IMG/VR virus record: IMGVR_UViG_3300028422_001054
Direction: 5' to 3' (one strand)
Length of the DNA: 64,000 nucleotides
From: an uncultured virus (IMG/VR IMGVR_UViG_3300028422_001054)
Lineage: Duplodnaviria; Heunggongvirae; Uroviricota; Caudoviricetes
Shown here: piece after piece, positions 15,712 to 39,805 of the stretch
Layout of the letters: every line of letters starts with the position of its first letter
Position numbering within the stretch: position 1 is the stretch's first letter
Program-made: the position numbers and the translations under genes
The notes under the pieces: generated by a model
Databases searched by the model: none
Seen by the model: only the letters and a program-made list of their open reading frames with translations
What the model was told of the DNA's origin: nothing

Positions 15712-15749
15712 ATACATGCTTAACTTTTAATTTCAAGCATGTATCTAAA
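15707..15749. terminator. inverted repeat between convergent genes
   Basis: 15-bp perfect arms TTTAGATACATGCTT / AAGCATGTATCTAAA. Confidence 0.6.
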
Positions 15750-15757
15750 CGTAGATA

Positions 15758-16744: not shown

Positions 16745-16767
16745 TTATTTAGGGCCTCCTAGCCTTA

Positions 16768-20125: not shown

Positions 20126-20311
20126 ATGAAAGACATTAAAATTGAAGAAGTTACAGAATTTGATAGTTATTTGTCAAGCTCCGCAAGTTTTGAAATGAAT
20201 TTGCTTTTAGCAAATTCATCTTTTTTAAAAGGCGTTAAAAGTCATGAAGCAGAGAAACTAAATGTTTCTCTTATCGACCTACATTTCGGGCGTGACGTCC
20301 GGAATGCATAA
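20126..20311 (+). CDS. hypothetical protein
   Basis: AAGGAG RBS. Confidence 0.6.
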   Translation: MKDIKIEEVTEFDSYLSSSASFEMNLLLANSSFLKGVKSHEAEKLNVSLIDLHFGRDVRNA

Positions 20312-20318
20312 AAACTTT

Positions 20319-20359
20319 TTATCAAGTATATTGACACAAATTAATATACTCGATAATAT
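20319..20359 (+). promoter_or_regulatory. palindromic sigma70 promoter, family B, copy 1
   Basis: TTGACA-17 nt-TAATAT within TTATCAAGTATATT/AATATACTCGATAA. Confidence 0.8.
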
Positions 20360-20364
20360 ATACA

Positions 20365-20408
20365 AGCTTGCAATGGTTTTTATAGTAGTTCGAATCTACT
20401 AGCAAGCT
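20365..20408 (+). ncRNA. tRNA-minihelix-like element, copy 1
   Basis: AGCTTGC/GCAAGCT stem enclosing TAGTAG-TTCGAAT-CTACTA. Confidence 0.65.
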
Positions 20409-20435
20409 ATAAATAAAAATTTTAAGGAGAATAAG

Positions 20436-20927
20436 ATGGAATTTACTTTAGAAGAAATCAATGAAATTATGGATAGAAATAATGGGGATCTAATCCTCAA
20501 GGATACACTTATCAAAACATTACCAGAAGGGTTAAAGGTTCAAGGAAACTTGGATCTGACAGATACCGACATTCAAGAGTTACCAAACGGGTTAATAGTT
20601 GGAAAAAACTTAAACTTGTACTTTACAAAGGTAACGTCGTTACCTGAAAATTTAAAAGTTGGTGGATGGGTAGAGCTACAAGGGACTAAGATAGAGACGT
20701 TACCAAAAGGTTTAGAAGTAGGCTTATCCCTAGATGCAAGCTATACACCAATGACAACACTACCAAGAGATTTAAAAATTGGTGGTTACCTTAGTCTGAG
20801 AGGGACTAAGGTAATAACATTACCAAAAGGGTTAACCGTAGGAACCGTTTTAGATATAACGAATACAAAAGTTAAGTCTTTACCTAAAGACTTAAAAGTA
20901 GGAGGTAAAATCTACAGCGATCTATAA
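20436..20927 (+). CDS. leucine-rich repeat protein (20-aa repeat, 6 full units, no C-terminal domain)
   Basis: LPxGLxVGGxLxLxxTxI repeats. Confidence 0.9.
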   Translation: MEFTLEEINEIMDRNNGDLILKDTLIKTLPEGLKVQGNLDLTDTDIQELPNGLIVGKNLNLYFTKVTSLPENLKVGGWVELQGTKIETLPKGLEVGLSLDASYTPMTTLPRDLKIGGYLSLRGTKVITLPKGLTVGTVLDITNTKVKSLPKDLKVGGKIYSDL

Positions 20928-20937
20928 GATTAATACA

Positions 20938-20982
20938 AGCTTGTAATGGTTTTATATAGTGGTTCAATTCCACTAGCAAGCT
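20938..20982 (+). ncRNA. tRNA-minihelix-like element, copy 2
   Basis: AGCTTGT/GCAAGCT stem enclosing TAGTGG-TTCAATT-CCACTA (compensatory pair). Confidence 0.65.
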
Positions 20983-21007
20983 ATAAACCAAAATTTAGGA
21001 GTTTAAT

Positions 21008-21550
21008 ATGGAATTCGAATTTGTAATGGGATCTACAATCCATAATACAATTATTATTGCAGAAATAAATATCAGAAATCATTTTTCAATATCTTTTAAT
21101 GAGGTTCTTCCGTTTGAAATGACAGAAGAAAGAGATCTAGAACAAAAAGAAAGCTTTCTTGAAAATTTTGAAGAAGAAGAAAGACAAGAAATAGAGGAAC
21201 AGATCTATTATCTTGGTTATGAAGGATATTTTGATATATCTTTATATTCAAATAATTTTAATTTTCCAGAACTGGAAAATGATATCTATTTTGAATCTAT
21301 AGGGTGTGGTCAGGGGGATCATAGAAAAGATCTTATATACTCTATTAACTCTATTGATAAAAATACAGATACAAAAGATATCAATACAAAGATCTTTGAC
21401 CTCTGGGATAGATTACATTTAAAGGAAATGGAGAGTTTATCAGAATCTGATAAACAAGAAATTAATAACTTAATTGAAAAAATCAAAACGTTTGATCTAG
21501 ATGATCAAATGGAAATATTAGCAAGAAAATTGCTAATAGAGGATAAATAA
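21008..21550 (+). CDS. acidic hypothetical protein
   Basis: AGGAG RBS; GCGQ and WDRLHL motifs. Confidence 0.75.
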   Translation: MEFEFVMGSTIHNTIIIAEINIRNHFSISFNEVLPFEMTEERDLEQKESFLENFEEEERQEIEEQIYYLGYEGYFDISLYSNNFNFPELENDIYFESIGCGQGDHRKDLIYSINSIDKNTDTKDINTKIFDLWDRLHLKEMESLSESDKQEINNLIEKIKTFDLDDQMEILARKLLIEDK

Positions 21551-21551
21551 C

Positions 21552-22130
21552 ATGAAACCATATGATAGTATAAAAACGATGTATAAGTCAAAAAGTCTTA
21601 TACATCGTAAAAAAGTTTGTTTAAACAATGATGTTGTTATTGTAACAACAGACGAGCAAGCTAATAAGTTAAGTCCATTGACTTTATATTCTTGGATAGG
21701 ACGCCTAAACGTTAATCTAAGAATGTACAATAGCAGTAGTCAATTCGGTGATATGGTTTTTTCAAACAAAGAAGACGCTGTTATTGAAAAAATCAGAGAA
21801 TTGAAGTTTATACAAAAAAATGTTAATGACTGTATTAATGACTTAAAAGAAGAAATTTCTACTATACGACGTATTAGATCTATAGCTAAAAAGCTATATA
21901 CTTTCTCTATGGAAAATTCATATTTAAGCAAACGAGATCTAGATCTTATTATATCTAGATATGAATTAAACTTAACCTTAAATGAGTTTAAAAACTTAAG
22001 CTTAATTATGGGAATTCAATTTAAGAGTAATAATCTTGTTTCTATATGGTTAGGAAAAAAATCAAAACTTAAGATTGAAACAATTATTAAAATAATAGAA
22101 AAATTGAGATATCAAATAAAAATAAATTAA
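21552..22130 (+). CDS. basic hypothetical protein
   Basis: 192-aa ORF, GAGG RBS. Confidence 0.7.
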   Translation: MKPYDSIKTMYKSKSLIHRKKVCLNNDVVIVTTDEQANKLSPLTLYSWIGRLNVNLRMYNSSSQFGDMVFSNKEDAVIEKIRELKFIQKNVNDCINDLKEEISTIRRIRSIAKKLYTFSMENSYLSKRDLDLIISRYELNLTLNEFKNLSLIMGIQFKSNNLVSIWLGKKSKLKIETIIKIIEKLRYQIKIN

Positions 22131-22137
22131 ATTATCT

Positions 22138-22178
22138 TTATCAAGTATATTGACAAAAATTAATATACTTGATAATAT
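22138..22178 (+). promoter_or_regulatory. palindromic sigma70 promoter, family B, copy 2
   Basis: perfect 14-bp arms TTATCAAGTATATT/AATATACTTGATAA; TTGACA-17-TAATAT. Confidence 0.85.
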
Positions 22179-22209
22179 GTAGAAAGATAAAAACTTGAGG
22201 AGTTTGAAG

Positions 22210-22896
22210 ATGAATAATTTTGACATGAACAGTAAAGGAATAAATATCATAGCTAATATTTTTTATGATGAATGTCTTTCGCAAGACAACTTTGACCGAA
22301 ATTGTAAACTTATAGATAAAAACAAAGATTTTTTTATATACACTGATTATGGTAACTTAAGCAGTGATTTCTATATATCTTTGAAAGAAGAGTCCAGAAC
22401 AGATCTCGAAGATGTTATAGAACAAGAACAAATTTATTGCGGATGCTCTATAGATGAGCTTGATATTCAAGAGCTTCAAGCTCTTATAGAAAATGAGTTA
22501 TCATATATAGATTTATTTTTTATCTGTAAAAAATATCATCTTGAGATTGAACAAAATTATGAGTTATTAACGATTCGAGGATTCTCTCAAGGTGACATCT
22601 TAAAAATATTTGTAAATATTGAAGAGTTTGAAAAGGTGACAGGAGCTGTTTTTAACGATATCAAAGAATCTTTAAAAGAAGATTTAATTAATTATTGTTA
22701 TAAAACACCATTAACTGCACGAATAACAATAAACGACCAAGAGATCTATTTGGACGGAATTGACGGCAATTATATTTATTATGATGCAGATACTAAAAAA
22801 CAAATTATAGAAATTTGTTTAAAAAGTGTATCAGATATTGATCAAGATCTTTTAAAAGAAGAACTTGAGGAATTATTACCAGAAGAAATAAATTAA
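22210..22896 (+). CDS. acidic hypothetical protein (RGFSQGD motif)
   Basis: GAGGAG RBS before ATG at 22210. Confidence 0.75.
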   Translation: MNNFDMNSKGINIIANIFYDECLSQDNFDRNCKLIDKNKDFFIYTDYGNLSSDFYISLKEESRTDLEDVIEQEQIYCGCSIDELDIQELQALIENELSYIDLFFICKKYHLEIEQNYELLTIRGFSQGDILKIFVNIEEFEKVTGAVFNDIKESLKEDLINYCYKTPLTARITINDQEIYLDGIDGNYIYYDADTKKQIIEICLKSVSDIDQDLLKEELEELLPEEIN

Positions 22897-22903
22897 ACTA
22901 ATT

Positions 22904-22944
22904 TTATCAAGTATATTGACAAAAATTAATATACTTGATAATAT
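22904..22944 (+). promoter_or_regulatory. palindromic sigma70 promoter, family B, copy 3
   Basis: identical to copy 2, with near-identical leader and RBS. Confidence 0.85.
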
Positions 22945-22975
22945 TTAGAAAGATAAAAACTTGAGGAGTTTAAAA

Positions 22976-23272
22976 ATGATAAAAATGATAGTCCAAGACA
23001 CGTATACAAAGAGAGATATAAACGGAAACGTTTATCACGCAATTACAATTATCAACCTTGAAAATAGAGAATCCTTTACTACTAGTTCTCCCAACTTAAG
23101 TAATGTTACCAGTATTTTGCAGAAAGCTGGTTTCGATTATAGTCAGATTTACACAATTGAAACTTGTACAGGATCGGCAAGGCATAGCTCTTTACCAAAA
23201 AGTATATACCTTGATCCTTGCAGGTATACGGAAGAATGGAAAAAACAATTAATAGGAATTAATTGTTTATAG
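22976..23272 (+). CDS. hypothetical protein
   Basis: GAGGAG RBS before ATG at 22976; DINGNVYH motif. Confidence 0.7.
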   Translation: MIKMIVQDTYTKRDINGNVYHAITIINLENRESFTTSSPNLSNVTSILQKAGFDYSQIYTIETCTGSARHSSLPKSIYLDPCRYTEEWKKQLIGINCL

Positions 23273-23337
23273 GATGTTAAGAGGTATTCATAAACCTCTT
23301 AATATTTAAAATTAAGATGACGACAAAAGAGGATAAT

Positions 23338-24177
23338 ATGGAATATACTTTAGAAGAACTGAATAAAATGATGGATGGAAACTATGGAAACTTAGATTTA
23401 AACTTCAATGATACTAAAGAAATATCATTACCGATATCGTTACCTAAAGGGTTAACTGCTCGAGGATGGTTAGATTTAGCTCATACGGAAATTGAATCAT
23501 TACCTGAAGGGTTAACGGTTAGGGGTACCTTATATTTAAGATATACCCCAATTATAGAATTACCAGAAGGGTTAACTGTAGGAAGAACCTTAGATTTAGA
23601 AGGTACTCCAATTAAATCTTTACCAAAAGGGTTAACCGTAGGAGGAGACTTAAATTTAAAATATACTAAAATTAAATCACTACCAAGAGATTTAAAAGTT
23701 GGTGGAAAAATCTACAGTGATTTACCTAAAAATGAACTAAATTACACAAAACTTCAACAAGGTGAGTATGTTGAAAATTCATACCTATATGCCGATGAAA
23801 TATTCACTCTTGTTAAATCTAAAAAGTCTTTTGATAAATACACATATTTTATTGGAGAGTTTAAAGGTCAAAACGTACTTTATGATGGTACTTATTACGC
23901 ACATTGTGAAAACATCAAGAAAGGACTTAGGGATCTTAACTTCAAACATTCTCAAGATAGAAGAATTGAACAATACAAAAATTTAAAATTAACAAGTAAT
24001 CTATCTTTTGATGAATCAAAAACGATGTACAGAATTTTAACTGGAGCATGTAGGCAAGGTACTGAAAGTTTCATTAGTAACTTAAAAACAATAAAAGATC
24101 AGTATACAATACAGGAATTAATAGATCTAACTGTTAATCAATATGGGCATGAAGTTTTTAAGAAGTTTTTTAAATAA
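23338..24177 (+). CDS. leucine-rich repeat protein (4 full units) with conserved C-terminal domain
   Basis: 20-aa LRRs plus YYAHC and YRILTGACRQGT domain; GAGGA RBS before 23338. Confidence 0.9.
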   Translation: MEYTLEELNKMMDGNYGNLDLNFNDTKEISLPISLPKGLTARGWLDLAHTEIESLPEGLTVRGTLYLRYTPIIELPEGLTVGRTLDLEGTPIKSLPKGLTVGGDLNLKYTKIKSLPRDLKVGGKIYSDLPKNELNYTKLQQGEYVENSYLYADEIFTLVKSKKSFDKYTYFIGEFKGQNVLYDGTYYAHCENIKKGLRDLNFKHSQDRRIEQYKNLKLTSNLSFDESKTMYRILTGACRQGTESFISNLKTIKDQYTIQELIDLTVNQYGHEVFKKFFK

Positions 24178-24191
24178 AAAGTTGTACTTTT

Positions 24192-24232
24192 CACTTGTTT
24201 ATGTTGACTAAAATATAAATAAGTGATAAGAT
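24192..24232 (+). promoter_or_regulatory. palindromic sigma70 promoter, family A, copy 1
   Basis: TTGACT-17-TAAGAT with TG extension; arms CACTTGTTTAT/ATAAATAAGTG. Confidence 0.8.
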
Positions 24233-24239
24233 TATTATA

Positions 24240-24284
24240 AGCTTATAATGGTTTTATATAGTAGTTCGATGCTACTAACAAGGT
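24240..24284 (+). ncRNA. tRNA-minihelix-like element, copy 3 (degenerate outer stem)
   Basis: TAGTAG-TTCGATG-CTACTA hairpin and AATGGTTTTATA linker kept; outer stem has two mismatches. Confidence 0.5.
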
Positions 24285-24296
24285 AAGGAGATTTTT

Positions 24297-24617
24297 ATGA
24301 TTATGGCATTTAAAAGATATCTAGAAATAAATGATTTTACGCTTATAGATTGTATTGCTTTAGAAAATAGCACCTATCAAATTTCTTATTATGATAATAA
24401 GAGCAAGGCAATAAAAACAAAACTTGTACCAAAATATAAAAAGTCTTATACGCTAAGATATGTTAATAGAAATGAAGTTTTTTATGTAGATTTTAGTCCT
24501 ATGACTTCAAAGGAAGCTAAAATTATTAAAAATAATTCTCTGTTTTATCCTAACCGAACAATAGATATTGTTCCATATGGTTTTTATCTTGAGTGGAAAA
24601 ATGGGCAATTGCTATAA
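24297..24617 (+). CDS. hypothetical protein
   Basis: AAGGAG RBS. Confidence 0.7.
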   Translation: MIMAFKRYLEINDFTLIDCIALENSTYQISYYDNKSKAIKTKLVPKYKKSYTLRYVNRNEVFYVDFSPMTSKEAKIIKNNSLFYPNRTIDIVPYGFYLEWKNGQLL

Positions 24618-24631
24618 AATAGCATATAACA

Positions 24632-24676
24632 AGCTTGTAATGGTTTTATATAGTAGTTCGATTCTACTAGCAAGCT
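24632..24676 (+). ncRNA. tRNA-minihelix-like element, copy 4
   Basis: AGCTTGT/GCAAGCT stem enclosing TAGTAG-TTCGATT-CTACTA. Confidence 0.65.
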
Positions 24677-24701
24677 ATAAATCAAAATAGAGGAGTTAAA
24701 T

Positions 24702-24932
24702 ATGTTTACAAAAAGAAATAGAATTTCCAGTATCGAGAAAAAGTTAAATATCCGAACGGAATTAAAACTTAAAGATTATAGTGATAGTTTAAATTCTACT
24801 TTTAAAGTATTTAGACTAATCGATGAGTATCCTACAAATACGACAGGAATCTATAAATCAACTGGTCAGAAATATGAATATGATGGTATTTTTACTAAGC
24901 AACAATTGATTGACGAATGCAACAAACTATAA
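24702..24932 (+). CDS. hypothetical protein
   Basis: GAGGAG RBS. Confidence 0.7.
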   Translation: MFTKRNRISSIEKKLNIRTELKLKDYSDSLNSTFKVFRLIDEYPTNTTGIYKSTGQKYEYDGIFTKQQLIDECNKL

Positions 24933-24957
24933 ATCAGATTTTTAGGAGTGATGAAAA

Positions 24958-25383
24958 ATGGATTATGAAACTTTAATAAATAACAAGATCGAACAGCATA
25001 AAAAATTAAAACAAGAAAAAAAGGATAAAAGGACTTCTCAAGAAATAAGACTTGAGGAAGTAGCTAATCAAATTGAAAAGTTTTATGAAGCTATAGACAA
25101 AAGTAACTTAAGATTTAACAAAAATAACTCTATAGAGAGTGTAACCTTTAAACAGCTATTTCATAAAAACAATATGCTACTCCGTAGATCTACAGGTACC
25201 GAAATTAAGTTTAAAACACCTATTTTAAGATACGAACATCTTACACTAATGTTAAATAGCAATCTAGACTTGATATTTGTATTAAGTTCTATGTATGCTT
25301 CGAGTACACCAAATAAAATATTTAGAAATATTGACGATTTAATTGGTTTTATGACTACTAAAATTATTGATATGAGCATATAG
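24958..25383 (+). CDS. hypothetical protein
   Basis: AGGAG RBS; 141 aa. Confidence 0.7.
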   Translation: MDYETLINNKIEQHKKLKQEKKDKRTSQEIRLEEVANQIEKFYEAIDKSNLRFNKNNSIESVTFKQLFHKNNMLLRRSTGTEIKFKTPILRYEHLTLMLNSNLDLIFVLSSMYASSTPNKIFRNIDDLIGFMTTKIIDMSI

Positions 25384-25398
25384 AAAAAGGAGTTTAAG

Positions 25399-25692
25399 AT
25401 GAATATAGAACTAATTGTAAATAATGAACCATGTTGGTTACATGATGTAAGATTTAATGCAGAAGCGTTAAATGATTATTTAACATATGATGGTGATAAT
25501 TACCATATATCAGAAACTGATTTTAATTGGTGGTCGGAATATAACAATAAATATAATAATGCCGATGATAAATTAAAAGAGCTGTTTGAGAAAAATGAAG
25601 AGTTAAAAGAGGAATTCTTCCATTTTATCATAGAGAAAGATTTTAATGATTACCCTGAGCAAATTCTTTATTTTATAGAGTTGAATAAATAA
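25399..25692 (+). CDS. acidic hypothetical protein
   Basis: AAGGAG RBS. Confidence 0.7.
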   Translation: MNIELIVNNEPCWLHDVRFNAEALNDYLTYDGDNYHISETDFNWWSEYNNKYNNADDKLKELFEKNEELKEEFFHFIIEKDFNDYPEQILYFIELNK

Positions 25693-25718
25693 GGTTTTTA
25701 GTTAAAATGTGTACTTTT

Positions 25719-25759
25719 CACTTATTTATGTTGACTAAAATATAAATAATTGGTAAGAT
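25719..25759 (+). promoter_or_regulatory. palindromic sigma70 promoter, family A, copy 2
   Basis: TTGACT-17-TAAGAT; CACTTATTTAT/ATAAATAATTG. Confidence 0.8.
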
Positions 25760-25789
25760 TATTACAAGATAAAGACAAGAGAGGATGTT

Positions 25790-26551
25790 ATGGAATATAC
25801 TTTAGAAGAACTAAATAAAATGATGGAAGAGAATGATGGAAACTTAAGTTTATATAATACTCCGATTAAATCATTACCAGAAGGGTTAAAGGTTGGAGGT
25901 TGGTTAGATTTAAGAAATACCCCAATTAAATCGTTACCAGAAGGATTAACAGTTGGAGGATATTTAGATTTAGAAAATACTGAAATTGAATCTTTACCAG
26001 AAGGATTAACCGTTGGAGGATATTTAGCTTTAAGGTATGCTCCAATTACAACGCTACCAGAAGATTTAAAAGTTGGAGGTACCATATTTAGGGATTTACC
26101 TGAAAATGAACTCAATTATACAAAACTTAAACAAGGTGATTATGTTAAAGATGAATATCTATATGCCGATGAAATCTTAACTCACATTAAAGCTAAAAAA
26201 TCTTTTGATAAGTACACATATTTTATTGGTAAATTTAAAGATAAAAACGTACTTTATGATGGAACTTATTATGCTCACTGTAAAAACATCAAACAAGGAA
26301 TTAAGGATCTTAGCTTCAAACATGCTAAAGATAGAAGAATTGAACAATACAGAAATCTCAAGCTAACAAGTATTCTATCTTTTGAAGAATCAAAAACAAT
26401 GTATCGAGTTTTAACTGGAGCATGTAGGCAAGGAACTGAAAGCTTTATTAGTAACTTAAAAACAATAAAAGATCAGTATACAGTACAGGAATTACTAGAT
26501 CTAACTGTTAATCAATATGGGCATGAAACTTTTAAGAAGTTTTTTAGTTAA
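25790..26551 (+). CDS. leucine-rich repeat protein (3 full units) with conserved C-terminal domain
   Basis: close paralog of 23338 and 31137. Confidence 0.9.
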   Translation: MEYTLEELNKMMEENDGNLSLYNTPIKSLPEGLKVGGWLDLRNTPIKSLPEGLTVGGYLDLENTEIESLPEGLTVGGYLALRYAPITTLPEDLKVGGTIFRDLPENELNYTKLKQGDYVKDEYLYADEILTHIKAKKSFDKYTYFIGKFKDKNVLYDGTYYAHCKNIKQGIKDLSFKHAKDRRIEQYRNLKLTSILSFEESKTMYRVLTGACRQGTESFISNLKTIKDQYTVQELLDLTVNQYGHETFKKFFS

Positions 26552-26565
26552 AAAGTTGTACTTTT

Positions 26566-26606
26566 CACGTATCTATGTTGACTAAAATATAGATACGTGA
26601 TAATAT
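26566..26606 (+). promoter_or_regulatory. palindromic sigma70 promoter, family A, copy 3
   Basis: TTGACT-17-TAATAT; arms CACGTATCTAT/ATAGATACGTG. Confidence 0.85.
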
Positions 26607-26636
26607 TATTACAAGATAAAGAAAAGAGAGGATAAT

Positions 26637-27251
26637 ATGGAATATACTTTAGATGTGTTGAATAAAATGATGGAAGAGAATGATGGAGACTTAGATTTAA
26701 AACATACTGGGATTGAATCGTTACCAGAAGGGTTAACAGTTGGAGGATATTTAGATTTAAGCTATACTTCAATTACATCATTACCTAATGGGTTAACTGT
26801 TGGAGGATGGTTAGATTTAAGAAATACTCAAATTACAACACTACCAGAAGGGTTAACGGTTGGAGGTAGCGTATATTTAAGATATACTCAAATTACATCG
26901 TTACCTAAAGGATTAACGGTTGGAGGAACCTTAGATTTAGAAGGTACTACAATTACATCGTTACCAAAAGGATTAACCGTTGAAGGAAGCTTATATTTAG
27001 ACTATTCTCGAATAACTTCATTACCAGAAGGGTTAACTGTTGGAGGTTGGTTAGATTTAAGTTATGCTCCAATTGAATCGTTACCAGAAGGGTTAACTGT
27101 TGGAGAAATCTTATATTTAGAAGGTACTAAAATAACATCGTTACCACAAGATTTAAAAGTTGGTGATAAAATCTACGGAGATTTACCAAAGAAGGAACTA
27201 CACTGCACAAAACTCCAACAGGACGATTATATTGCATTTGAATACCTATAA
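26637..27251 (+). CDS. leucine-rich repeat protein (7 full units), C-terminal domain lost
   Basis: 20-aa LRRs; early TAA followed by a remnant of the paralog 3' end. Confidence 0.85.
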   Translation: MEYTLDVLNKMMEENDGDLDLKHTGIESLPEGLTVGGYLDLSYTSITSLPNGLTVGGWLDLRNTQITTLPEGLTVGGSVYLRYTQITSLPKGLTVGGTLDLEGTTITSLPKGLTVEGSLYLDYSRITSLPEGLTVGGWLDLSYAPIESLPEGLTVGEILYLEGTKITSLPQDLKVGDKIYGDLPKKELHCTKLQQDDYIAFEYL

Positions 27252-27312
27252 GCGGAAGGAATCTTAGCTCCTGTTAAATCTAAGAAGTTTTTTAGTTAAA
27301 ATGTGTACTTTT

Positions 27313-27353
27313 CACTTATTTATGTTGACTAAAATATAAATAAGTGATAAGAT
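27313..27353 (+). promoter_or_regulatory. palindromic sigma70 promoter, family A, copy 4
   Basis: TTGACT-17-TAAGAT; perfect arms CACTTATTTAT/ATAAATAAGTG. Confidence 0.85.
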
Positions 27354-27383
27354 TATTACAAGATAAAGAAAAGAGAGGATAAT

Positions 27384-27701
27384 ATGAAAAGTTTTAGAGA
27401 AATGAGTCCTAAGGAATGGAGTGAAGCAGTAGAGAAACTAGCTAGTGATTTATCAAATACAGACTTAAATGTATTCCGAGAAAGTACATTGAGAAGAATG
27501 TATGCTGATATGTATGGTGTAGATGATGATATAGAAAGAGCTTATTCCATAGAGGATATAAAGAACTGTTTATATGACGAGGATATTACTGATGAACAAG
27601 CTGATAAAATATCCATCTGGCTAGAGACTAAAGGAGATAGTACTCTTACATTTTGGGAGAATATAACGAATGCTTATGATACATTAAAGGAGGAGTTCTA
27701 A
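27384..27701 (+). CDS. acidic hypothetical protein
   Basis: same leader and RBS as the LRR genes. Confidence 0.75.
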   Translation: MKSFREMSPKEWSEAVEKLASDLSNTDLNVFRESTLRRMYADMYGVDDDIERAYSIEDIKNCLYDEDITDEQADKISIWLETKGDSTLTFWENITNAYDTLKEEF

Positions 27702-28258
27702 TGGTATACATACTTTACAGCAATAAAATAAAATATCTGCATAGTCTGGAAGGAAAAGAGATTAACAAAAGTGATTTAGAATCTCTAGGTACTACTTACA
27801 TGCCAATAACTGATTTTACTGAGTTGTTTAATAATGATTATGATGCTATTAAAAGCATGAATCGTAACGGTCACATAACATATATTAACGTAAAAGAAAA
27901 TAAGTCTGATACTCATAATGAAGTATTATATAAAGAAATAACAGCAAGCCGTCAAATATACTTAATAGACAATACTTATTTTGTATATAATCATGAGTTT
28001 ACATATTTCAATGTAGCTTTAGATGAAAAGAGTTGTTTGAACAGTAGTAATAGTTTAGGGTCTTTTGATACTGAAGAACTTGCTATGGAGTTTATAGATA
28101 AACTTCAATCAGAAAATAAGTCTGATACTCCAGAAATCGTAAAAGACTTAAATACGATAAAAGAGTTTGTTTTAAGATTTGATACTCCTGATGATTTAGA
28201 TTTAGAAGTATCAAAATTACTAGATAAATATATTGCTAAATATTCGAGAGGAGAATAG
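27701..28258 (+). CDS. hypothetical protein
   Basis: GGAGGAG RBS; TAATG overlap; internal ENKSDT duplication. Confidence 0.75.
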   Translation: MVYILYSNKIKYLHSLEGKEINKSDLESLGTTYMPITDFTELFNNDYDAIKSMNRNGHITYINVKENKSDTHNEVLYKEITASRQIYLIDNTYFVYNHEFTYFNVALDEKSCLNSSNSLGSFDTEELAMEFIDKLQSENKSDTPEIVKDLNTIKEFVLRFDTPDDLDLEVSKLLDKYIAKYSRGE

Positions 28259-28259
28259 A

Positions 28260-28643
28260 ATGAGACATAGCATAAAAAATGAAATCGTGGCTGGTTTTAA
28301 AACAGCTTTATTATGGATACACCAAGAAGATTTTGAAGATATCGATACTTTTTCAGATTCTGCTGAATTGTTTATTGATAACTTAGTAAAGGATTTTATC
28401 AAAGAGACTAATCTCTTTGACCTAATGGGAGCTTTTACACCTTTAAACGATGAATACTCTATAGGGGAACTTATAGGACATGATTTGTTTTTATCGGTGG
28501 GAGGATTTGGAGCTGGTTTCTTGAGTAAACCTAATATCTATAATGGTTTCGAAAATAATCTTGATAACTTTGTAGAAAAAAAGGTTACATGGATAAACGA
28601 TATTTTCATAAATGATGAAAGTCATGTTATAGAGATAGAGTAA
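28260..28643 (+). CDS. hypothetical phage protein (GHDLFL...GxGxGF motif)
   Basis: GAGGAG RBS before ATG at 28260. Confidence 0.75.
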   Translation: MRHSIKNEIVAGFKTALLWIHQEDFEDIDTFSDSAELFIDNLVKDFIKETNLFDLMGAFTPLNDEYSIGELIGHDLFLSVGGFGAGFLSKPNIYNGFENNLDNFVEKKVTWINDIFINDESHVIEIE

Positions 28644-28730
28644 TAAATGTTGGTACTTTTTACTAGGGAAAAAGTAGTAGTTTTTAGATAAGAGTAGTAA
28701 ATATTACAGTTTTAAGAGAGGATAAAGAAG

Positions 28731-29357
28731 ATGTTTAAAGAAAATGATTTAGTAAAATCTAAAGTAAGTAGTGAAATCTATACAGTTCAAAAGGTTTCAG
28801 ATTATGTTGTACTAAGTAATGGTGGTAGATACTTAGAGGAAGAGCTTAGAGAAGCTACTAAAGAGGATCTATACCAAGAGTTGGAATCTAAAGTAAGAGT
28901 TTGGGTTAATAGAGAGTTTAACAGTATTCCTTTAAGATTAGTGGAAGCTCTGGTAGAAAATGAAGGACAGAATTTATCAGAGTTTATACATCCTTTAGAC
29001 TGTTTAGACATTAAAGAATCTATTGAAAATATATCTTCCCAGCTTGAGGATGATGATTTTTCAGAAGAGGATAGAGAGTATTTAGAAGAGGAGTTGCAAA
29101 CTCTTAATGAAAAGTTAGATAGCTTAAACGATGACAATTATCCTTTACATGGTACATTGTTTGAGTTGAACTCTACAGATGAAGATATTATAGAAGCAGC
29201 TAAGAAAATAGGACTAGGAGTTATATCTGGGAATGATTACTTTAACTCTATGTTATTTATGACAGAAACTGGAAGCAACTTCTATAGAAAGTTTTGGATA
29301 CCTTTATTCTTGGAGCTATATCCTGATACTAGGTATGATGGTATAGAGATAGGTTAA
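28731..29357 (+). CDS. acidic hypothetical phage protein (C-terminal FY...WIPL motif)
   Basis: GAGG RBS; 208 aa. Confidence 0.75.
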   Translation: MFKENDLVKSKVSSEIYTVQKVSDYVVLSNGGRYLEEELREATKEDLYQELESKVRVWVNREFNSIPLRLVEALVENEGQNLSEFIHPLDCLDIKESIENISSQLEDDDFSEEDREYLEEELQTLNEKLDSLNDDNYPLHGTLFELNSTDEDIIEAAKKIGLGVISGNDYFNSMLFMTETGSNFYRKFWIPLFLELYPDTRYDGIEIG

Positions 29358-29431
29358 AGAGAGTGTTATTATATCCTTCTACCGTTGGTGGAAGGTAGTA
29401 TTACTAATATGAGTTATGGAGATAAATAGAT

Positions 29432-29650
29432 ATGGAAAATATACTAATTAAAGATGTGGTATTACTGAATACTGTAATAGATTTTACAATGGCATTAAAC
29501 AATGTATCTGTAAAGGATTTAAAAGATATGGAGCTATCTAAGGCTGTTGATTATGTTATAGGGTTAATTCCTGAAACTAAGAAAGATGAAATGGATATTG
29601 ATAATTTGCATGAAGTAGTTGAATACTGCTTGATAAACAAATTAAGCTAA
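29432..29650 (+). CDS. hypothetical protein
   Basis: GGAG RBS. Confidence 0.65.
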   Translation: MENILIKDVVLLNTVIDFTMALNNVSVKDLKDMELSKAVDYVIGLIPETKKDEMDIDNLHEVVEYCLINKLS

Positions 29651-29906
29651 TAGAATTATGGTTAAAGTAGGCTTTAATGTTTATTTTAACCAATCAAAAC
29701 TTTTCCTAGAGCGTAGACTGTACTTTTTACCTCTAGGAGTTGACTAAAAATCATTTTACTGTTTATTTTATAATTTATTTAATTGGTAAATTTCACCAAT
29801 TGACTGGCGAGATTTACCAATCGAAAAAATTAAATAAAAATCATAGCTTTTTGATTGACACAACAGTATATGTATGTTAATATTATTACATAAAGGAGAT
29901 AATCAG

Positions 29907-30383
29907 ATGGATTTAAGAGCAATAGATACTTTAGTACTACCAATGACAGATAAGAGATATTTAGTATGTTCTTTTGATGGTAATGAGTTATCATCTCTAA
30001 AGGATATATGTGATATGGAGACTAATACCTTGGATAAGGCTTTAAAACTTTGTGGAATATTATCTGAGAAGTATGAGGTATGTTTTGTATATGATATATT
30101 ACATGGAAGGGTATCGTATACAGGAGTGACAACACCTTCTGGATGTTTTGTTAAGAAGATACAGTATGATTTGATAGAGTCTTATTTTAGAAATATTTAT
30201 CATATAGAGGATCTTTATAGAGTAGGTTTTATAGGAGCTAAGGATATGCTTATAGATACTTTTCCTAAAGATACTTTATTTACGATGGTACCAGGTTTAA
30301 GTGTTGTTGTAGCGTATACTAGAGAGTTTAATGTAATATATGATAAGTTTGTTACTACTTATCAAGTAATAGGGACTATTTAA
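29907..30383 (+). CDS. hypothetical protein
   Basis: AAGGAG RBS before ATG at 29907; TTGACA-17-TAATAT upstream. Confidence 0.7.
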   Translation: MDLRAIDTLVLPMTDKRYLVCSFDGNELSSLKDICDMETNTLDKALKLCGILSEKYEVCFVYDILHGRVSYTGVTTPSGCFVKKIQYDLIESYFRNIYHIEDLYRVGFIGAKDMLIDTFPKDTLFTMVPGLSVVVAYTREFNVIYDKFVTTYQVIGTI

Positions 30384-30418
30384 AGTCTTTGCTTTATGCT
30401 ATGGTGGAGGTAAATACT

Positions 30419-30658
30419 ATGCTAACAGGATATAGAAGATTTAAAACGATTGTTGATTTACTTAAGAGACAATCGGAGGCTTATACTAAGATTCATAGTG
30501 TGAATGCTTGGGTATATGATTATGGAACTTCTGAAGAGATTAAAGAGCATAATAAAGTAATTAGAGAAGGCTCTGAGGAATTAAGAGTTGTTGAGGAAGA
30601 ACTTAAAGCTTTAGATGTTACCTTTGAAGAAGTAACACATGCTTATAGATGTTACTAG
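30419..30658 (+). CDS. hypothetical coiled-coil protein
   Basis: GGAGG RBS before ATG at 30419. Confidence 0.65.
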   Translation: MLTGYRRFKTIVDLLKRQSEAYTKIHSVNAWVYDYGTSEEIKEHNKVIREGSEELRVVEEELKALDVTFEEVTHAYRCY

Positions 30659-30759
30659 TCTAACTTTAAGATGTGTATTAGTGGTTTTAAAGTATTTAAT
30701 GCTTTAGAGTTTAATAAGAGTATATCTAAGTATACTACATTATATAGAGGAGTTGTTAT

Positions 30760-31002
30760 ATGAAGAAAATAACACAATTAGCAAATAATCAATTAACTTA
30801 TACAGATGGAGATAAAAGAGTATTTCAAAGCTATAATACTATTATTGCAGTAATTGAGAATGGTAAAACATTCTTAGACGAAACCTCGTGAAATTATTCA
30901 AAGACTACAGCCAAGTGGAGAAATATCTTTTTAAATATGACTACTGAGGAGACAAAGAAAGCTATCAAAGAAGGTGATACCACTCTTAAGGATCTTAATT
31001 AG
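30760..31002 (+). pseudogene. small phage protein (FQSY..IIA / YSxTTxKW pattern) with in-frame TGA
   Basis: GAGGAG RBS; TGA at 30889 interrupts an 80-codon frame (probably TGG to TGA). Confidence 0.7.
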
Positions 31003-31061
31003 CTAATGCAGAAATCAACCTACGATTACTTTTTAAGAAGTTTTTAATTAAAAAGTCGTAA

Positions 31062-31106
31062 TTATCACTTATTTATGTTGACTAAAGCATAAATAAGAGA
31101 TAATAT
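31062..31106 (+). promoter_or_regulatory. palindromic sigma70 promoter, family A, copy 5
   Basis: TTATCACTTATTTATG-TTGACTAAAG-CATAAATAAGAGATAA; TAATAT -10. Confidence 0.85.
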
Positions 31107-31136
31107 TATTACAAGATAAAGAAAAGAGAGGATACT

Positions 31137-32858
31137 ATGGAATATACTTTAGAAGAATTAAATAGAATGATGAAAGATAATGATGGAAACTTAGATTTAA
31201 GACATACTAAAATTACATCACTGCCTAAAGGATTAACAGTTGGAGGTAACTTATATTTAAGAAATACTCAAATTACCTCGTTACCAGGAGATTTAATTGT
31301 TGGAGGAGACTTAGATTTAAGTTATACTCCAATCACATCGTTACCAGGAGATTTAATTGTTGGAGGAGACTTAGATTTAAGTTATACTCCAATCACATCG
31401 TTACCAGACGATTTAATTGTTGGAGGAGACTTAGATTTAAGTTATACTCCAATCACATCGTTACCAGACGATTTAATTGTTGGAGGTAGCTTATATTTAA
31501 GCAATACTCAAATTAAATTATTACCAAAAGGATTGAAGGTTGGAGGTGGGGTAGATTTAAGATATGCTCCGATTAAATCATTACCAGAAGACTTATCTGT
31601 TGGAAGTAGCTTAGATTTAAGTCGTACTCAAATTAAATCATTACCAGAAGGGTTAAAGGTTGGAGGTTGGTTAGATTTAAGATATGCTCCAATTAAATCG
31701 TTACCAGAAGAGTTAATGGTGAAAGGTAGTTTATATTTAGAAAATACTCAAGTTACCTCGTTACCAGAAGGGTTCATGGTTAGAGGTAGCTTATATTTAA
31801 GTCATACTCAAATCACATCGTTACCAAAAGGGTTAACGGTTGGAGGAGACATAGATTTAAGATATGCTCCAATTACATCGTTACCAGAAGGGTTAACCGT
31901 TGGTGGTAATTTAGACTTAGAAGGTACTAAAATTACCTCGTTACCAGAAGGGTTAACTGTTGGAGGTTGGCTAGATTTAAGTCATACTCAAATCACATCG
32001 TTACCAAAAGGGTTAACGGTTGGAGGAGACATAGATTTAAGCGTTACTCCGATTACAACACTACCAGAAAGGTTAACGGTTGGAAGAAATCTAGATTTTA
32101 GATATACTAAAATTACCTCGTTACCAGAAGGGTTAACTGTTGGAGGTTGGCTAGATTTAAGAAATACTCAAATTACATCATTGCCTAAAAGGTTAACTGT
32201 TGGAGGATATTTAGATTTAAGTTCTACTCAAATTACATCGTTACCTGAAGGATTAACCGTTGGAGGTAACTTATATTTAGAAGGTACTAAAATCACATCG
32301 TTACCGAAAGGGTTAACGGTTGGAGGATATTTAGCTTTAAGTAATACTCCAATTAAATCGTTATCAATAGATTTAAAAGTTGGAGGTACCATATTTAGCG
32401 ATTTACCTAAAAATAAAGTCAAATATACAAAACTTCAACAAGGTGACTATAGTGAAGCTGACTATCTGTATGCAGATGGAATCTTAACTCATATTAAAGC
32501 TAAAAAATATTTTGATAAATATACATATTTTATTGGAGAATTTAAAGATAAAAATGTACTTTATGATGGAACTTATTATGTTCACTGTAAAAACATTAAG
32601 CAAGGAATTGAGGATCTTAACTTCAAACATGCTAAAGATAGAGGGTCTGATCACTACAAAAATCTAAAATTATCCAGTATTCTATCTTTTGAAGAATCTA
32701 AAACGATGTACAGGATTTTAACCGGTGCGTGTAGACAAGGTACTGAAAGTTTTATTGAAAATTTGAAAATAATAAAAGAACAGTATACCATCCAAGAATT
32801 AATAGATCTAACTGTTAATCAATACGGTTATGAAACTTTTAAGAAGTTTTTTAGTTAA
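31137..32858 (+). CDS. leucine-rich repeat protein (19 full units) with conserved C-terminal domain
   Basis: 60-bp periodic DNA repeat; YRILTGACRQGT domain. Confidence 0.92.
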   Translation: MEYTLEELNRMMKDNDGNLDLRHTKITSLPKGLTVGGNLYLRNTQITSLPGDLIVGGDLDLSYTPITSLPGDLIVGGDLDLSYTPITSLPDDLIVGGDLDLSYTPITSLPDDLIVGGSLYLSNTQIKLLPKGLKVGGGVDLRYAPIKSLPEDLSVGSSLDLSRTQIKSLPEGLKVGGWLDLRYAPIKSLPEELMVKGSLYLENTQVTSLPEGFMVRGSLYLSHTQITSLPKGLTVGGDIDLRYAPITSLPEGLTVGGNLDLEGTKITSLPEGLTVGGWLDLSHTQITSLPKGLTVGGDIDLSVTPITTLPERLTVGRNLDFRYTKITSLPEGLTVGGWLDLRNTQITSLPKRLTVGGYLDLSSTQITSLPEGLTVGGNLYLEGTKITSLPKGLTVGGYLALSNTPIKSLSIDLKVGGTIFSDLPKNKVKYTKLQQGDYSEADYLYADGILTHIKAKKYFDKYTYFIGEFKDKNVLYDGTYYVHCKNIKQGIEDLNFKHAKDRGSDHYKNLKLSSILSFEESKTMYRILTGACRQGTESFIENLKIIKEQYTIQELIDLTVNQYGYETFKKFFS

Positions 32859-33242: not shown

Positions 33243-33929
33243 ATGGAAAAATTTTTAAACAAACATAATGTTGATGCAGATGTAGATTGTATAGCTGAAG
33301 GAGTTTACTCTGTTAGAGTAAATAATAAAGACCTGGACCTAGTAGATGTAGAAAATTGTTTGCGAGAGCAACCCGATAAAGTTTACTTAGACTATTCATT
33401 GCTTGCAAAACAAGAGATTCAAAAAACTTATGCAAGAATAATTGAAAGAGTTCAAGATGTTGAGATAGGTAAAACTTTAGAGGTTGAAAAGTTCAGTATC
33501 TTTAAAAAAGATGATAATCTTTTTGAAATTAAAACTAAGAATATTAAAACCCCAAGACTGTCATCTATAAATAACTTACCTTATGCACTTCACGAGCTTC
33601 ATTTACAGGCTTTGAGAGATAAAATAGTTCTTTTCCCTGGAACCGAGGGAAATGATGTAGATAGAACAGCATTCGCTTTTAGCGAAGTATATGCTAATCT
33701 GAAAAAACTTGTAAGACATCATCTTAGAATAGGAACCAGCAATGCTGAGTATGACTTACTCTCTGATCTATTGTATGTTGCTACAGGTTATGAAGAAGAG
33801 GATGAAGCTCTAATGTTATTTAATCTATATTTGGACAGAATACTAAATGAAGCGGATGAGCTAATGTCACCTGTTTTGAAAACTGTTTTAGTAAAGTTTA
33901 TTAATAAAATATTTAGGAGTGCTGAATGA
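33243..33929 (+). CDS. hypothetical protein
   Basis: TTGACA-17-TAATAT promoter and AAGGAG RBS. Confidence 0.75.
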   Translation: MEKFLNKHNVDADVDCIAEGVYSVRVNNKDLDLVDVENCLREQPDKVYLDYSLLAKQEIQKTYARIIERVQDVEIGKTLEVEKFSIFKKDDNLFEIKTKNIKTPRLSSINNLPYALHELHLQALRDKIVLFPGTEGNDVDRTAFAFSEVYANLKKLVRHHLRIGTSNAEYDLLSDLLYVATGYEEEDEALMLFNLYLDRILNEADELMSPVLKTVLVKFINKIFRSAE

Positions 33930-39803: not shown

Positions 39804-39805
39804 TT

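Follow-up and report, generated by a model that had tools for sequence, protein, structure and literature searches.

LRR proteins with a conserved C-terminal domain form a multigene family in a large myovirus-type phage

Introduction

Why does a phage encode several LRR proteins whose repeat units vary around a constant scaffold, and how has this variation arisen? The genes in question lie on a 129.7-kb contig of a large myovirus-type phage, of which a 64-kb stretch (hereafter the window) was studied. The initial annotation of the window saw in them a recombination-diversified repertoire of binders, comparable to lamprey VLRs and aimed at host proteins early in infection. Our own interpretation, to which we attach roughly an even chance, is a phage germline multigene family of early cytoplasmic proteins, in which the LRR part would recognize the target and a constant C-terminal domain would supply the activity.

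Anatomy of the LRR genes

The window encodes a tail sheath, a major head protein, a sigma factor and a head-morphogenesis protein, and also Rha, ThyA, RtcB and peptide deformylase. The LRR genes belong to a plus-strand block with 23 neighbors, nearly all of them ORFans. The family was first described as having five members, which is correct for the window (Table 1) but not for the contig, where at least eight copies are present; the three paralogs outside the window have 9, 10 and 7 units. The N-cap is found on all five window ORFs, and the numbers of full 20-aa units given earlier were reproduced when units were counted in LP phase, with a partial C-cap unit after each array. The g2 ORF is open from 23317, and its conserved cap begins at 23338, giving the 279-aa form P0008. 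The paralogs are 69–75% identical to g3, against at most 58% for other family members in the same search, and each of the 149 other loci, 10.6 kb long on average, contains just one copy. The multicopy state thus probably represents a lineage-specific expansion. The most divergent paralog is g1, whose units share 58–77% DNA identity with their three best-matching units.

Table 1. Positions of the LRR genes, their C-terminal domains and the associated promoter-like elements in the window.
Feature	Position	Strand	Description
g1	20436..20927	+	N-cap, 6 full LRR units, C-cap; no C-terminal domain
g2	23338..24177	+	N-cap, 4 units, C-cap, C-terminal domain
g2 C-terminal domain	23728..24174	+	AH[CG] and TGAC motifs
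Element copy at g2 end	24161..24268	+	starts within last g2 codons
g3 upstream element	25688..25795	+	remnant of C-domain 3' end before element
g3	25790..26551	+	N-cap, 3 units, C-cap, C-terminal domain; modeled protein, pLDDT 94
g3 C-terminal domain	26102..26548	+	modeled alone, pLDDT 92.4; no PDB fold match
g4 upstream element	26535..26642	+	overlaps g3 end; tandem arrangement
g4	26637..27251	+	N-cap, 7 units, C-cap, in-frame TAA 16 codons into C-domain
g4 C-domain remnant, decayed	27252..27299	+	about 125 codons deleted
Element after g4	27282..27389	+	93% identical to copy before g3; precedes non-LRR gene 27384-27701
g5 upstream element	31035..31142	+	remnant of C-domain 3' end before element
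g5	31137..32858	+	N-cap, 19 units, C-cap, C-terminal domain
g5 identical-unit run	31281..31460	+	three tandem 60-bp units, 100% and 97% DNA identity
g5 C-terminal domain	32409..32855	+	about 150 aa

The C-terminal domain is present in six of the eight contig copies. Its lack in two of the five window copies means either that it is dispensable for the role of those copies or that they are dead. Behind the in-frame stop of g4, about 10 codons resembling the start of the domain are joined directly to its last 5 codons and stop, and this gene formerly carried the domain.

The repeat scaffold is constant and the intervening positions vary, as had been claimed. Across the 39 units, the entropy is at most 1.13 bits at L1, P2, L5, V7, G8, G9, L11, L13, T16 and I18 and 2.3–2.9 bits at positions 10, 14, 15 and 17, and the variable positions coincide with the canonical concave LRR strand. 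The half-modules of the first set (WLDL seven times, SLYL four, YLDL and DLDL three each) and of the second set (SYTP and RYAP four times each, RNTQ and EGTK three each, SHTQ twice) recur. Tandem Repeats Finder reported a period of 60 in all genes except g1, for which it gave no row, and counted 20.0 copies at 31188-32388. The Pfam models LRR_4, LRR_1 and LRR_8 exceed their gathering thresholds in g4 and g5. Additionally, PDB 8z5u chain 0 was matched by the family profile (E 2.5e-35), by g5 alone (E 6.8e-31 over 162 residues) and by the g3 model (Z 16.8, rmsd 2.4 Å, 106 residues, 33% identity).

This chain is FlrP, described as a periplasmic, LRR-only protein of about 199 aa with a Sec signal peptide, bound to the rod of the polar flagellar motor in Vibrio (bioRxiv 10.64898/2025.12.04.692373). 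FlrP and the phage proteins have the 20-aa scaffold LPxGLxVxGxLxLxxTxI in common. However, the latter are phage-encoded, possess an acidic helical N-cap instead of a signal peptide and, in the six copies mentioned above, carry the C-terminal domain. Their acidic N-termini without a hydrophobic stretch suggest a cytoplasmic site.

A conserved element of about 100 nt, consisting of TTGACT-N17-TAAGAT within an inverted repeat and then a ribosome-binding site, is located upstream of g3, g4 and g5 and of two non-LRR neighbors (24297 and 27384), and g1 is preceded by a TTGACA-N17-TAATAT element. A scan of this AT-rich DNA yielded no more sigma-70-like matches than shuffled versions of it did (81 vs 84.8 ± 10), so the promoter call is based on the conservation of the elements and not on the scan. 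The sequence is present in no RNA run.

The C-terminal domain

The C-terminal domain is the part that stays constant throughout a very large phage family. It is about 150 aa long, has a mixed alpha and beta structure and is nearly confined to phages and prophages. At a cut-off of E ≤ 1e-3, the family has at least 1,522 cluster representatives, a number that falls to 935 at ≤ 1e-10 and to 286 at ≤ 1e-30. Among the 150 matches listed, nearly all have it at the C-terminus. At least four repeat types other than the 20-aa LRR, including several kinds of solenoid, have been joined to it, and in 23 of 148 representatives the N-terminal part is short or absent. Thirteen columns (D23, H59, K73, Y101, R102, T105, G106, A107, C108, G111, F115, Y126 and T135) are invariant in 34 sequences that are 31–81% identical to g3. 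No Pfam match was found in the domain, and no PDB fold was matched by its model (Foldseek best E 0.42, VIA-align best Z 4.0). The three intact window copies had been called near-identical, which overstates the 81% protein and 83–88% DNA identity between them. The initial annotation underrated this conserved domain of about 150 aa and missed its joining to varied repeats.

The combination of a constant domain with several unrelated repeat types points to an effector or an anchor with exchangeable solenoids rather than to a pure binder. Pure binders or inhibitors would mask or decoy a host or competitor protein through the LRR, with the C-terminal domain as no more than a folding cap, oligomerization module or stability module that lacks a chemistry of its own. 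This explanation is unlikely, although g1 and g4 are LRR-only yet retain both caps intact together with upstream promoter-like elements, the selection signature falls on the LRR face (see below), and the C-terminal domain has no matching enzyme fold or family. Within the family, no part is better conserved than this domain, which has a pN/pS of 0.22–0.33; its invariant columns include D, H, K, R, C and Y, and it has been retained while the N-terminal repeat type was swapped. The repeat-poor or repeat-less forms and the conserved polar and charged residues would be unexpected for a mere cap. Our best guess is that the domain may perform Cys/His-dependent enzymatic or covalent chemistry, an idea based only on one invariant histidine (His59) and one invariant cysteine (Cys108).

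Genomic position and relatives

The positional evidence agrees with the proposal of early genes. The LRR genes of the window sit in an early-type block, and in temperate phages their relatives come first in the early operon. In three of the four temperate contigs annotated, the family gene is directly upstream of recombination/replication genes and downstream of integrase/repressor or other lysogeny-side genes; the arrangement is less clear in the fourth. The cultured Tetrasphaera phage TJE1 likewise has the gene directly upstream of recombination/replication genes. The downstream genes include Erf, Sak4, SbcC-like and ERF + exonuclease. In the temperate contigs, the family gene shares its orientation with the lytic early genes rather than with the repressor.

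A virion-associated role in host recognition, in which the C-terminal domain docks on the particle and swappable solenoids (LRR, BspA-LRR, beta-helix-like) reach the receptors, is quite unlikely. Beta-solenoids are typical of fibers and spikes, and the fusion of the domain to many beta-solenoid types of varying length also fits an anchor with exchangeable surface modules, as do the eight copies in this phage. The DUF7941 paralogs of the large phage Goslar (Chimalliviridae) offer a precedent: they are described as virion-associated, oligomerizing proteins with a constant N-terminal module and a proposed function in host recognition (bioRxiv 10.64898/2026.04.21.720040). By that description, they resemble the present family as large-phage paralogs that combine a constant phage-specific module with LRR, beta-helix or other variable domains, but the constant module is C-terminal in our family and the genes are in early-type regions. 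Moreover, the window genes lie on the strand opposite to the structural module, apart from it and amid small ORFans, and three of the four temperate contigs and TJE1 place the gene by recombination/replication genes, not by tail genes. The proteins are also small (about 150–570 aa), and no trimerization or fiber motif was matched in them.

It is very doubtful that these proteins are phage- or prophage-encoded defense or exclusion sensors, whose LRR would detect a competing phage protein and whose C-terminal domain would be an abortive-infection effector. Immune systems often use an LRR sensor fused to an effector, the family is common in gut Clostridia prophages, the gene is near the lysogeny module in prophages, and one temperate contig (L014) has an Abi-type gene nearby. 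However, 10 family members had no match in 5,027 PADLOC models, and the gene orientation follows the lytic early genes. In addition, eight copies occur in a phage that looks like a large lytic-type myovirus, with no integrase or repressor found in the 64-kb window.

Diversification of the repeat units

Amino-acid change is in excess at the concave codons 10, 12, 14, 15 and 17, where pN/pS is 1.56 (bootstrap 1.15–2.25) in a comparison of repeat units, not orthologs, that is near saturation (pN 0.45). The corresponding values are 0.56 at the other x positions and 0.25 in the scaffold. The recent expansion noted earlier is evident in g5, where units 2–4 are 97–100% identical in DNA, with a copy number that is uncertain in a short-read assembly. 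Unit number varies between the paralogs, and also between phages elsewhere. Two near-identical phages (L056 and L059; flanks 99.5% and 97% identical) encode proteins that are the same except for exactly three extra units, and another pair (L023 and L040) is 99.8% identical before the first unit and 81.8% identical past the array, with 1 vs 4 units; these differences come from short-read assemblies and may be assembly errors.

The two half-modules associate independently, as had been proposed, with 36 distinct combinations in 39 units and mutual information not above permutations when the triplicated unit was collapsed (P 0.53). The array contains the contig break in 45 of 80 viral contigs. Programmed diversification, with arrays assembled or rewritten from cassettes during the phage life in the manner of VLRs, DGRs or shufflons, has both patterns in its favor, but it is already disfavored and highly improbable, as repeat identity accounts for the contig breaks, units are no closer within genes than between them (similarity 0.761 vs 0.754), all copies are complete ORFs, four of the five window copies directly behind their own promoter-like element and ribosome-binding site, no LRR units or orphan cassettes were found in the window outside the five ORFs, and none of its 72 ORFs matched a reverse transcriptase, deaminase, invertase or recombinase family in a Pfam scan. 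We read these genes as a germline multigene family that changes through unequal crossing-over and is subject to diversifying selection, not as a product of VLR-style assembly; as a mechanism, the initial comparison is not supported.

Proposed mechanism and known systems

Lamprey VLRs are similar to the phage proteins in that they are LRR solenoids in which concave-face residues and unit number vary, and repebody and VLR chains are among the weak LRR matches of the family profile. However, incomplete germline genes, flanking cassettes and a deaminase are all missing from the phage window, the units are of 20 aa rather than 24, Cys-rich caps are absent, and the variation is germline and between paralogs. 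The type III effectors IpaH, SspH and SlrP combine a variable N-terminal LRR with a constant C-terminal NEL ubiquitin-ligase domain and are multi-copy in Shigella. They have in common with the phage family the multigene state and short-unit LRRs of variable number and sequence, and in both the C-terminal domain is conserved and contains an invariant Cys. SlrP, SspH1/2 and IpaH match the phage proteins weakly and in the LRR part only. NCBIfam scores are 14–30 bits against cut-offs above 1,100, covering LRR positions only. The C-terminal domain of the phage family is unrelated, with no NEL domain, about 150 aa long and without a Pfam or PDB fold match, and bacteria, the target cells of the phage, lack a ubiquitin system.

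We return to the germline multigene family. An intact member consists of a short helical N-cap, an LRR solenoid of 3–19 20-aa units and the C-terminal domain, and would be made early from its own putative sigma-70-type promoter and remain in the cytoplasm. The target recognized by the LRR concave face would most likely be a host protein, for instance a defense or nuclease component, and the constant domain would confer a shared activity. Only ordinary processes would be needed to diversify the repertoire, which may grow when a gene is duplicated along with its promoter. Unequal crossing-over could add or remove whole 60-bp units, recombination may occur inside the arrays, and point mutation at concave positions would be followed by diversifying selection. 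Occasional decay would account for g4 and probably g1. With a variable LRR module and a conserved, uncharacterized end domain, the family looks like a diversifying set of early phage proteins directed against host targets.

Organization of the LRR gene family

The five plus-strand LRR genes proposed by the initial annotation (g1–g5) are all present, and each opens with the N-cap ME(Y/F)TLxx(L/I)NxxMxxNxG, which in g2 starts at 23338, seven codons inside the ORF. Counting full 20-aa units from the first LP reproduced 6, 4, 3, 7 and 19 units in g1 to g5, and every array is closed by a C-cap, the partial unit LPxDLKVGGxI(Y/F)xDL. Tandem Repeats Finder returned a period of 60 in four of the five genes and no row for g1. 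Across the 39 full units, the scaffold is near-constant, as had been claimed (entropy ≤1.13 bits); positions 10, 14, 15 and 17 are the most variable (2.3–2.9 bits), followed by positions 3, 6, 12 and 19 (1.6–1.8 bits). The near-identical 60-bp units of g5 were also recovered as its units 2–4, with DNA identities of 100% and 97%. A C-terminal domain of ~150 aa (C-domain) is indeed common to g2, g3 and g5, but "near-identical" overstates the likeness (81% protein and 83–88% DNA identity), and the domain had been seen but given too little weight. A six-frame regular-expression search found neither extra LRR units nor further C-domain motifs in the rest of the window. Beyond the window, the same 129,693-bp contig carries three further paralogs with intact C-domains (P0001, P0002 and P0004, with 9, 10 and 7 units), and the domain is present in six of the eight paralogs.

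Fold and closest structural relative

In Pfam, g5 exceeds the cut-offs of LRR_4 (56.0 bits; cut-off 27), LRR_1 (38.3; 20.6) and LRR_8 (37.0; 27), and g4 exceeds those of LRR_1 and LRR_4; g1–g3 fall under the Pfam LRR cut-offs, and their homology to the family is shown by alignment. A pAdhesive_15 match on g5 (34 bits, residues 51–120) sits on the triplicated units and was rejected as a repeat artefact. The AF2 model of g3 has a pLDDT of 94, and its residues 1–112 match LRR structures at Z values of up to 16.8; 30 chains reach Z ≥ 8, identifying the model as a curved-solenoid LRR. Each modelled unit contains two short strands, at positions 6–7 and 11–12. When established LRR geometry is applied to these strand positions, positions 10, 12 and 14 are predicted to face out of the concave sheet, with 15 and 17 on the adjoining turn.

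The nearest solved protein in both sequence and fold is PDB 8z5u chain 0 (family profile E 2.5e-35, g5 E 6.8e-31; against the g3 model, Z 16.8, rmsd 2.4 Å over 106 residues, 33% identity). A preprint that cites the entry describes this chain as FlrP, a Sec-exported LRR protein on the Vibrio polar flagellar motor rod (bioRxiv 10.64898/2025.12.04.692373). The 20-aa unit scaffold is common to FlrP and the phage proteins; however, FlrP has a Sec signal peptide and is LRR-only, at about 200 aa, whereas six of the eight phage paralogs carry an additional 150-aa domain. Read by eye, the phage N-termini contain no hydrophobic stretch or signal peptide and form acidic helical caps.

Genomic setting and promoter-like elements

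The window is part of a large tailed phage. The minus-strand half encodes a tail sheath, a major-head-protein relative, a PmgG-like head protein and a sigma factor, and Rha, thymidylate synthase, RtcB, peptide deformylase, a radical-SAM protein and a Dam fragment are encoded elsewhere in the window. The LRR genes lie within a plus-strand block of small genes; among their 23 neighbours in this block, four have weak PHROG matches (unknown or regulatory categories) and one has a Pfam match above cut-off.

Two recurrent elements precede several of these genes. In an element of ~100 nt, found five times, an inverted repeat encloses TTGACT-N17-TAAGAT and its TG extension, and a ribosome-binding site comes next. 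The element preceding g1 belongs to a second class, TTGACA-N17-TAATAT, whose sites sit in an ~11-bp inverted repeat, each ahead of a small plus-strand gene, and resemble an operator and promoter common to the whole block. A generic promoter scan was not enriched over shuffles (81 vs 84.8 ± 10), and we base the promoter reading on the conservation of the elements. We infer that the LRR genes are expressed early.

An intergenic element of ~50 nt occurs four times, each copy immediately 5' of a start codon and without an Rfam match. Three of the four copies fold (z −2.1 to −2.7) into a 7-bp outer stem, a 12-nt bulge, a 6-bp inner stem with one compensatory change and a 7-nt UUCGAAU-like loop. The shape is reminiscent of a tRNA acceptor/T-arm minihelix, and the phage also encodes RtcB.

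Several other genes of the window deserve mention. The peptide deformylase, radical-SAM and RtcB RNA ligase genes are clustered, and a nucleoside 2-deoxyribosyltransferase-like gene stands apart from this cluster. A gene flanked by the ORFan block and by that for thymidylate synthase encodes 581 aa, including a methyl-accepting chemotaxis signalling domain (MCPsignal 86 bits; phrog_8572), and no close relatives of it were found in genome contigs. For a neighbour of the LRR genes at 33243–33929, viral and metagenome contigs yielded no relatives. The thymidylate synthase finds its best genome match in a Halarcobacter MAG (67% identity; other matches listed ≤59%), a weak hint of an Arcobacteraceae-like host that agrees with the 30% G+C. 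The sequence was found in two runs, labelled hydrothermal vent metagenome and metagenome, which are probably one data set filed twice, and in no RNA run.

Features of the LRR region, other genes of the window and C-domain fusion loci
Feature	Position	Strand	Remark
g1	20436–20927	+	LRR gene
g2	23317–24177	+	LRR gene
g3	25790–26551	+	LRR gene
g4	26637–27251	+	LRR gene
g5	31137–32858	+	LRR gene
g5 units 2–4	31281–31460	+	near-identical 60-bp units
~100-nt element	before g3, g4, g5, gene at 24297, gene at 27384	+	promoter-like
TTGACA-N17-TAATAT class	20301–20394, 22120–22213, 22886–22979; also 29855, 33193	+	
~50-nt element	20361–20436, 20935–21010, 24237–24312, 24629–24704	+	
Deformylase, radical-SAM, RtcB cluster	14732–17895	−	
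Nucleoside 2-deoxyribosyltransferase-like gene	34829–35269	−	
Chemotaxis-type gene	35444–37189	−	
Thymidylate synthase	37199–38062	−	
C-domain fusions, three sets of other contig loci			L064, L065, L068, L069, L079; L066, L073, L074, L077; L063, L070, L071

Diversification of the arrays

Selection on the predicted binding face differs from that on the rest of the unit. We compared every pair among the 32 distinct units in g2–g5 (the 6 units of g1 excluded and one duplicate collapsed); Nei-Gojobori proportions gave a pN/pS of 1.56 at codons 10, 12, 14, 15 and 17 (bootstrap over units 1.15–2.25), against 0.56 at codons 3, 4, 6, 19 and 20 and 0.25 on the scaffold; between C-domains, the ratio is 0.22–0.33. 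The combinatorial use of half-modules suggested earlier is borne out: half-modules 10–13 and 14–17 combine independently of each other, with 36 distinct combinations in 39 units and a mutual information of 3.536 against 3.52 ± 0.042 in permutations (P 0.53, triplicated unit collapsed). The DNA of recurrent half-modules is mostly identical, which is weak evidence of common descent given the strong codon bias at 30% G+C. Unit likeness is 0.761 within genes versus 0.754 between genes, and there is no concerted evolution except the recent triplication. A PHI-type test within units was significant for the narrowest window alone, where within-codon linkage can explain the signal, and non-significant for wider windows.

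Turnover of whole units is visible in other contigs. Two related loci, L056 and L059, have flanks that are 99.5% and 97% identical and proteins that are identical but for exactly three extra units (180 bp). In another pair, L023 and L040, identity is 99.8% over the N-cap and first unit and 81.8% in the C-domain, with 1 versus 4 units, which points to a mosaic breakpoint inside the array. Of 80 viral contigs, 45 terminate within the array or just ahead of it, as do about 30 of 69 genome contigs. Because the arrays defeat short-read assembly, all unit counts, including the 19 of g5, are provisional, and because they break more than half of the viral carrier contigs, the family is systematically truncated in short-read databases. 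The window phage's own contigs, probably from one data set, break at every paralog. The simplest explanation for two contig joints (24178 to 31126 and 26556 to 31119) is that further paralogs lie in tandem at other places on the contig.

The gene borders suggest how copies arise and decay. The ~100-nt element starts within the last C-domain codons of the preceding gene at the g2/24297 and g3/g4 borders, and remnants of the C-domain 3' end precede the elements before g3, before g5 and after g4. This arrangement suggests tandem duplication of promoter and gene together, with later insertion or loss of other genes in between. In g4, an in-frame TAA stands where the paralogs encode Tyr. Past this stop, about 10 codons of the domain can still be recognised, and they abut its final five codons and stop; g1 ends right after its C-cap. 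Two of the five window copies, g4 with its stop and g1 with its end at the C-cap, are thus either LRR-only proteins or dead genes. Window paralogs are 69–75% identical to g3, and other family members ≤58%; the eight copies therefore represent a lineage-specific expansion.

A conserved C-terminal domain in search of a relative

The C-domain family has no name, no model in the Pfam version scanned and no structural relative. A domain-only alignment of 34 sequences, 31–81% identical to g3, has 13 invariant columns (D23, H59, K73, Y101, R102, T105, G106, A107, C108, G111, F115, Y126 and T135), all of which are present in g2, g3 and g5; distant members have Gly in place of the first Cys of YAHC. 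Searched against 1.84 billion representatives, the profile matched 1,522 proteins at E ≤ 1e-3; a threshold of 1e-10 left 935 and one of 1e-30 left 286. The family size is at least 1,522 clusters at 50% identity. The domain forms the extreme C-terminus in nearly all of the 150 matches listed. By regular expression, the N-terminal parts of 148 representatives are 20-aa LRRs in 57, other mostly repetitive sequence in 43, short or missing in 23, a related PxGFxPxV repeat in 18, 9-aa SSG repeats in 4 and BspA-type LRRs in 3; LRR_5 was confirmed by Pfam in one fusion of this kind. Among phage proteins, the C-domain is a mobile module. In other loci, it is preceded by 9-aa SSGxxAxxG repeats, a non-repetitive Cys-containing domain or BspA-type LRRs.

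The isolated domain was modelled at a pLDDT of 92.4 as a beta part of six strands that leads into a helical part. Foldseek against the PDB gave a best E of 0.42, VIA-align against 48,161 chains gave a best Z of 4.0 with no chain at Z ≥ 5, and a PDB sequence search with the domain profile gave no match at E ≤ 10. Pfam yielded no family at E ≤ 0.1 in the C-terminal parts, nothing meaningful at E ≤ 10 for the isolated domain and no meaningful match for three stand-alone members. Matches in the ESM Atlas were unnamed viral clusters only, and those in BFVD were uncharacterised phage proteins, two of which are auto-named 'Lamprin' and 'E3 ubiquitin-protein ligase', names that we attribute to their LRR parts. 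One database match (P0009) bears the precomputed label PF27023, which is absent from the Pfam version scanned. A full-text literature search, with thin coverage of subscription journals, found the family in no paper. A caspase-like reading of the AH[G] ... ACR pattern was considered and rejected; the modelled Cys lies between two helices, not behind a strand, and the fold matched no caspase.

Distribution and position in other phages

We found 87 relatives in IMG/VR contigs and 69 in bacterial or archaeal genome contigs, the latter mostly gut Clostridia MAGs and otherwise including Bacteroidota, Alphaproteobacteria, Elusimicrobiota and others; the genome-contig scan used a single peptide pattern, and the true range may be wider. 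The gene is single-copy in all 149 other loci (mean 10.6 kb), and one Ruminococcus contig holds two copies 8 kb apart. Four temperate siphovirus-like contigs were annotated (L012, L014, L051 and L059). In the first three, the gene lies downstream of integrase, repressor, anti-repressor or other lysogeny-side genes and immediately upstream of Erf, Sak4 or an SbcC-like gene, which is followed by SSB, primase and others; its position in L059 is less clear. In the cultured Tetrasphaera phage TJE1, the homolog is just upstream of ERF and exonuclease genes. The deposited annotation of this locus (L230, HQ225832.1) splits the homolog (5001–5669 of the locus, 39193–39861 of the accession), calling the C-domain part alone as orf51 and covering the LRR part with the opposite-strand orf50.

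In lambda and P22, anti-RecBCD functions are encoded just before the recombination genes. Because the position matches, a host nuclease or defence protein is a reasonable candidate target of the family.

Proposed function

We propose, with the chances evenly poised, that these are early, cytoplasmic, modular proteins in which the LRR concave face would select the target and the constant C-domain would act on that target or on a common partner, with His59 and Cys108 as a candidate reactive pair. Their closest parallel, both in design and in family evolution, is with the IpaH/SspH/SlrP effectors, which, like the phage paralogs, combine a variable N-terminal LRR of short units with a constant C-terminal region; however, their NEL domain is absent from the phage proteins. 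Pfam found no NEL domain in the C-terminal parts, and NCBIfam SlrP and SspH2 matches cover LRR positions only (14–30 bits against cut-offs of 1,113–1,243). The likeness is therefore one of a way of working, not of membership. A bolder version holds that the domain is a new-fold Cys/His-dependent effector enzyme that a very wide range of phages use at the start of infection, steered to different host proteins by its exchangeable solenoids as a phage counterpart of the LRR-NEL effectors of bacterial pathogens, and expanded here into an eight-gene repertoire with binding faces diversified by selection in an arms race against host defences; we consider this rather improbable.

Among the rival explanations, all of them less likely, a pure binder, whose solenoid would suffice without any activity of the C-domain, ranks first; LRR-only products of g1 and g4 would fit it, and the invariant columns of the C-domain, with their polar or charged residues, speak against it. 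The C-domain could instead anchor a virion display module, for which Goslar DUF7941 is a precedent; early expression would fit this less well. A defence sensor would likewise pair a recognition solenoid with a constant domain, and none of 10 family members matched PADLOC defence models at E ≤ 0.01. Programmed assembly, if the lamprey VLR analogy of the initial annotation is taken as a mechanism, fares worst: lamprey VLRs complete an incomplete germline gene from flanking LRR cassettes, whereas all phage copies are complete ORFs, four of the five in the window stand directly behind a promoter-like element, no LRR unit lies outside the five ORFs in the 64-kb window, and none of its 72 ORFs (64 kb of the 129.7-kb contig) matches the reverse transcriptase of a diversity-generating retroelement.

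Several features make the family of wider interest. Phage early-operon genes are a source of many counter-defence and host-takeover functions, and this gene adjoins recombination genes in TJE1, the single cultured phage inspected, as well as in three of the four annotated temperate contigs. The design, which couples a variable solenoid for recognition with a constant domain bearing invariant His and Cys residues, is open to direct testing. Expansion to eight copies with a signature of selection on the predicted binding face is rare for a virus, making the window phage a natural experiment in the diversification of target specificity. As an enzyme, the C-domain would define an effector class of its own; as an anchor, it would make the family a new means of displaying binders.
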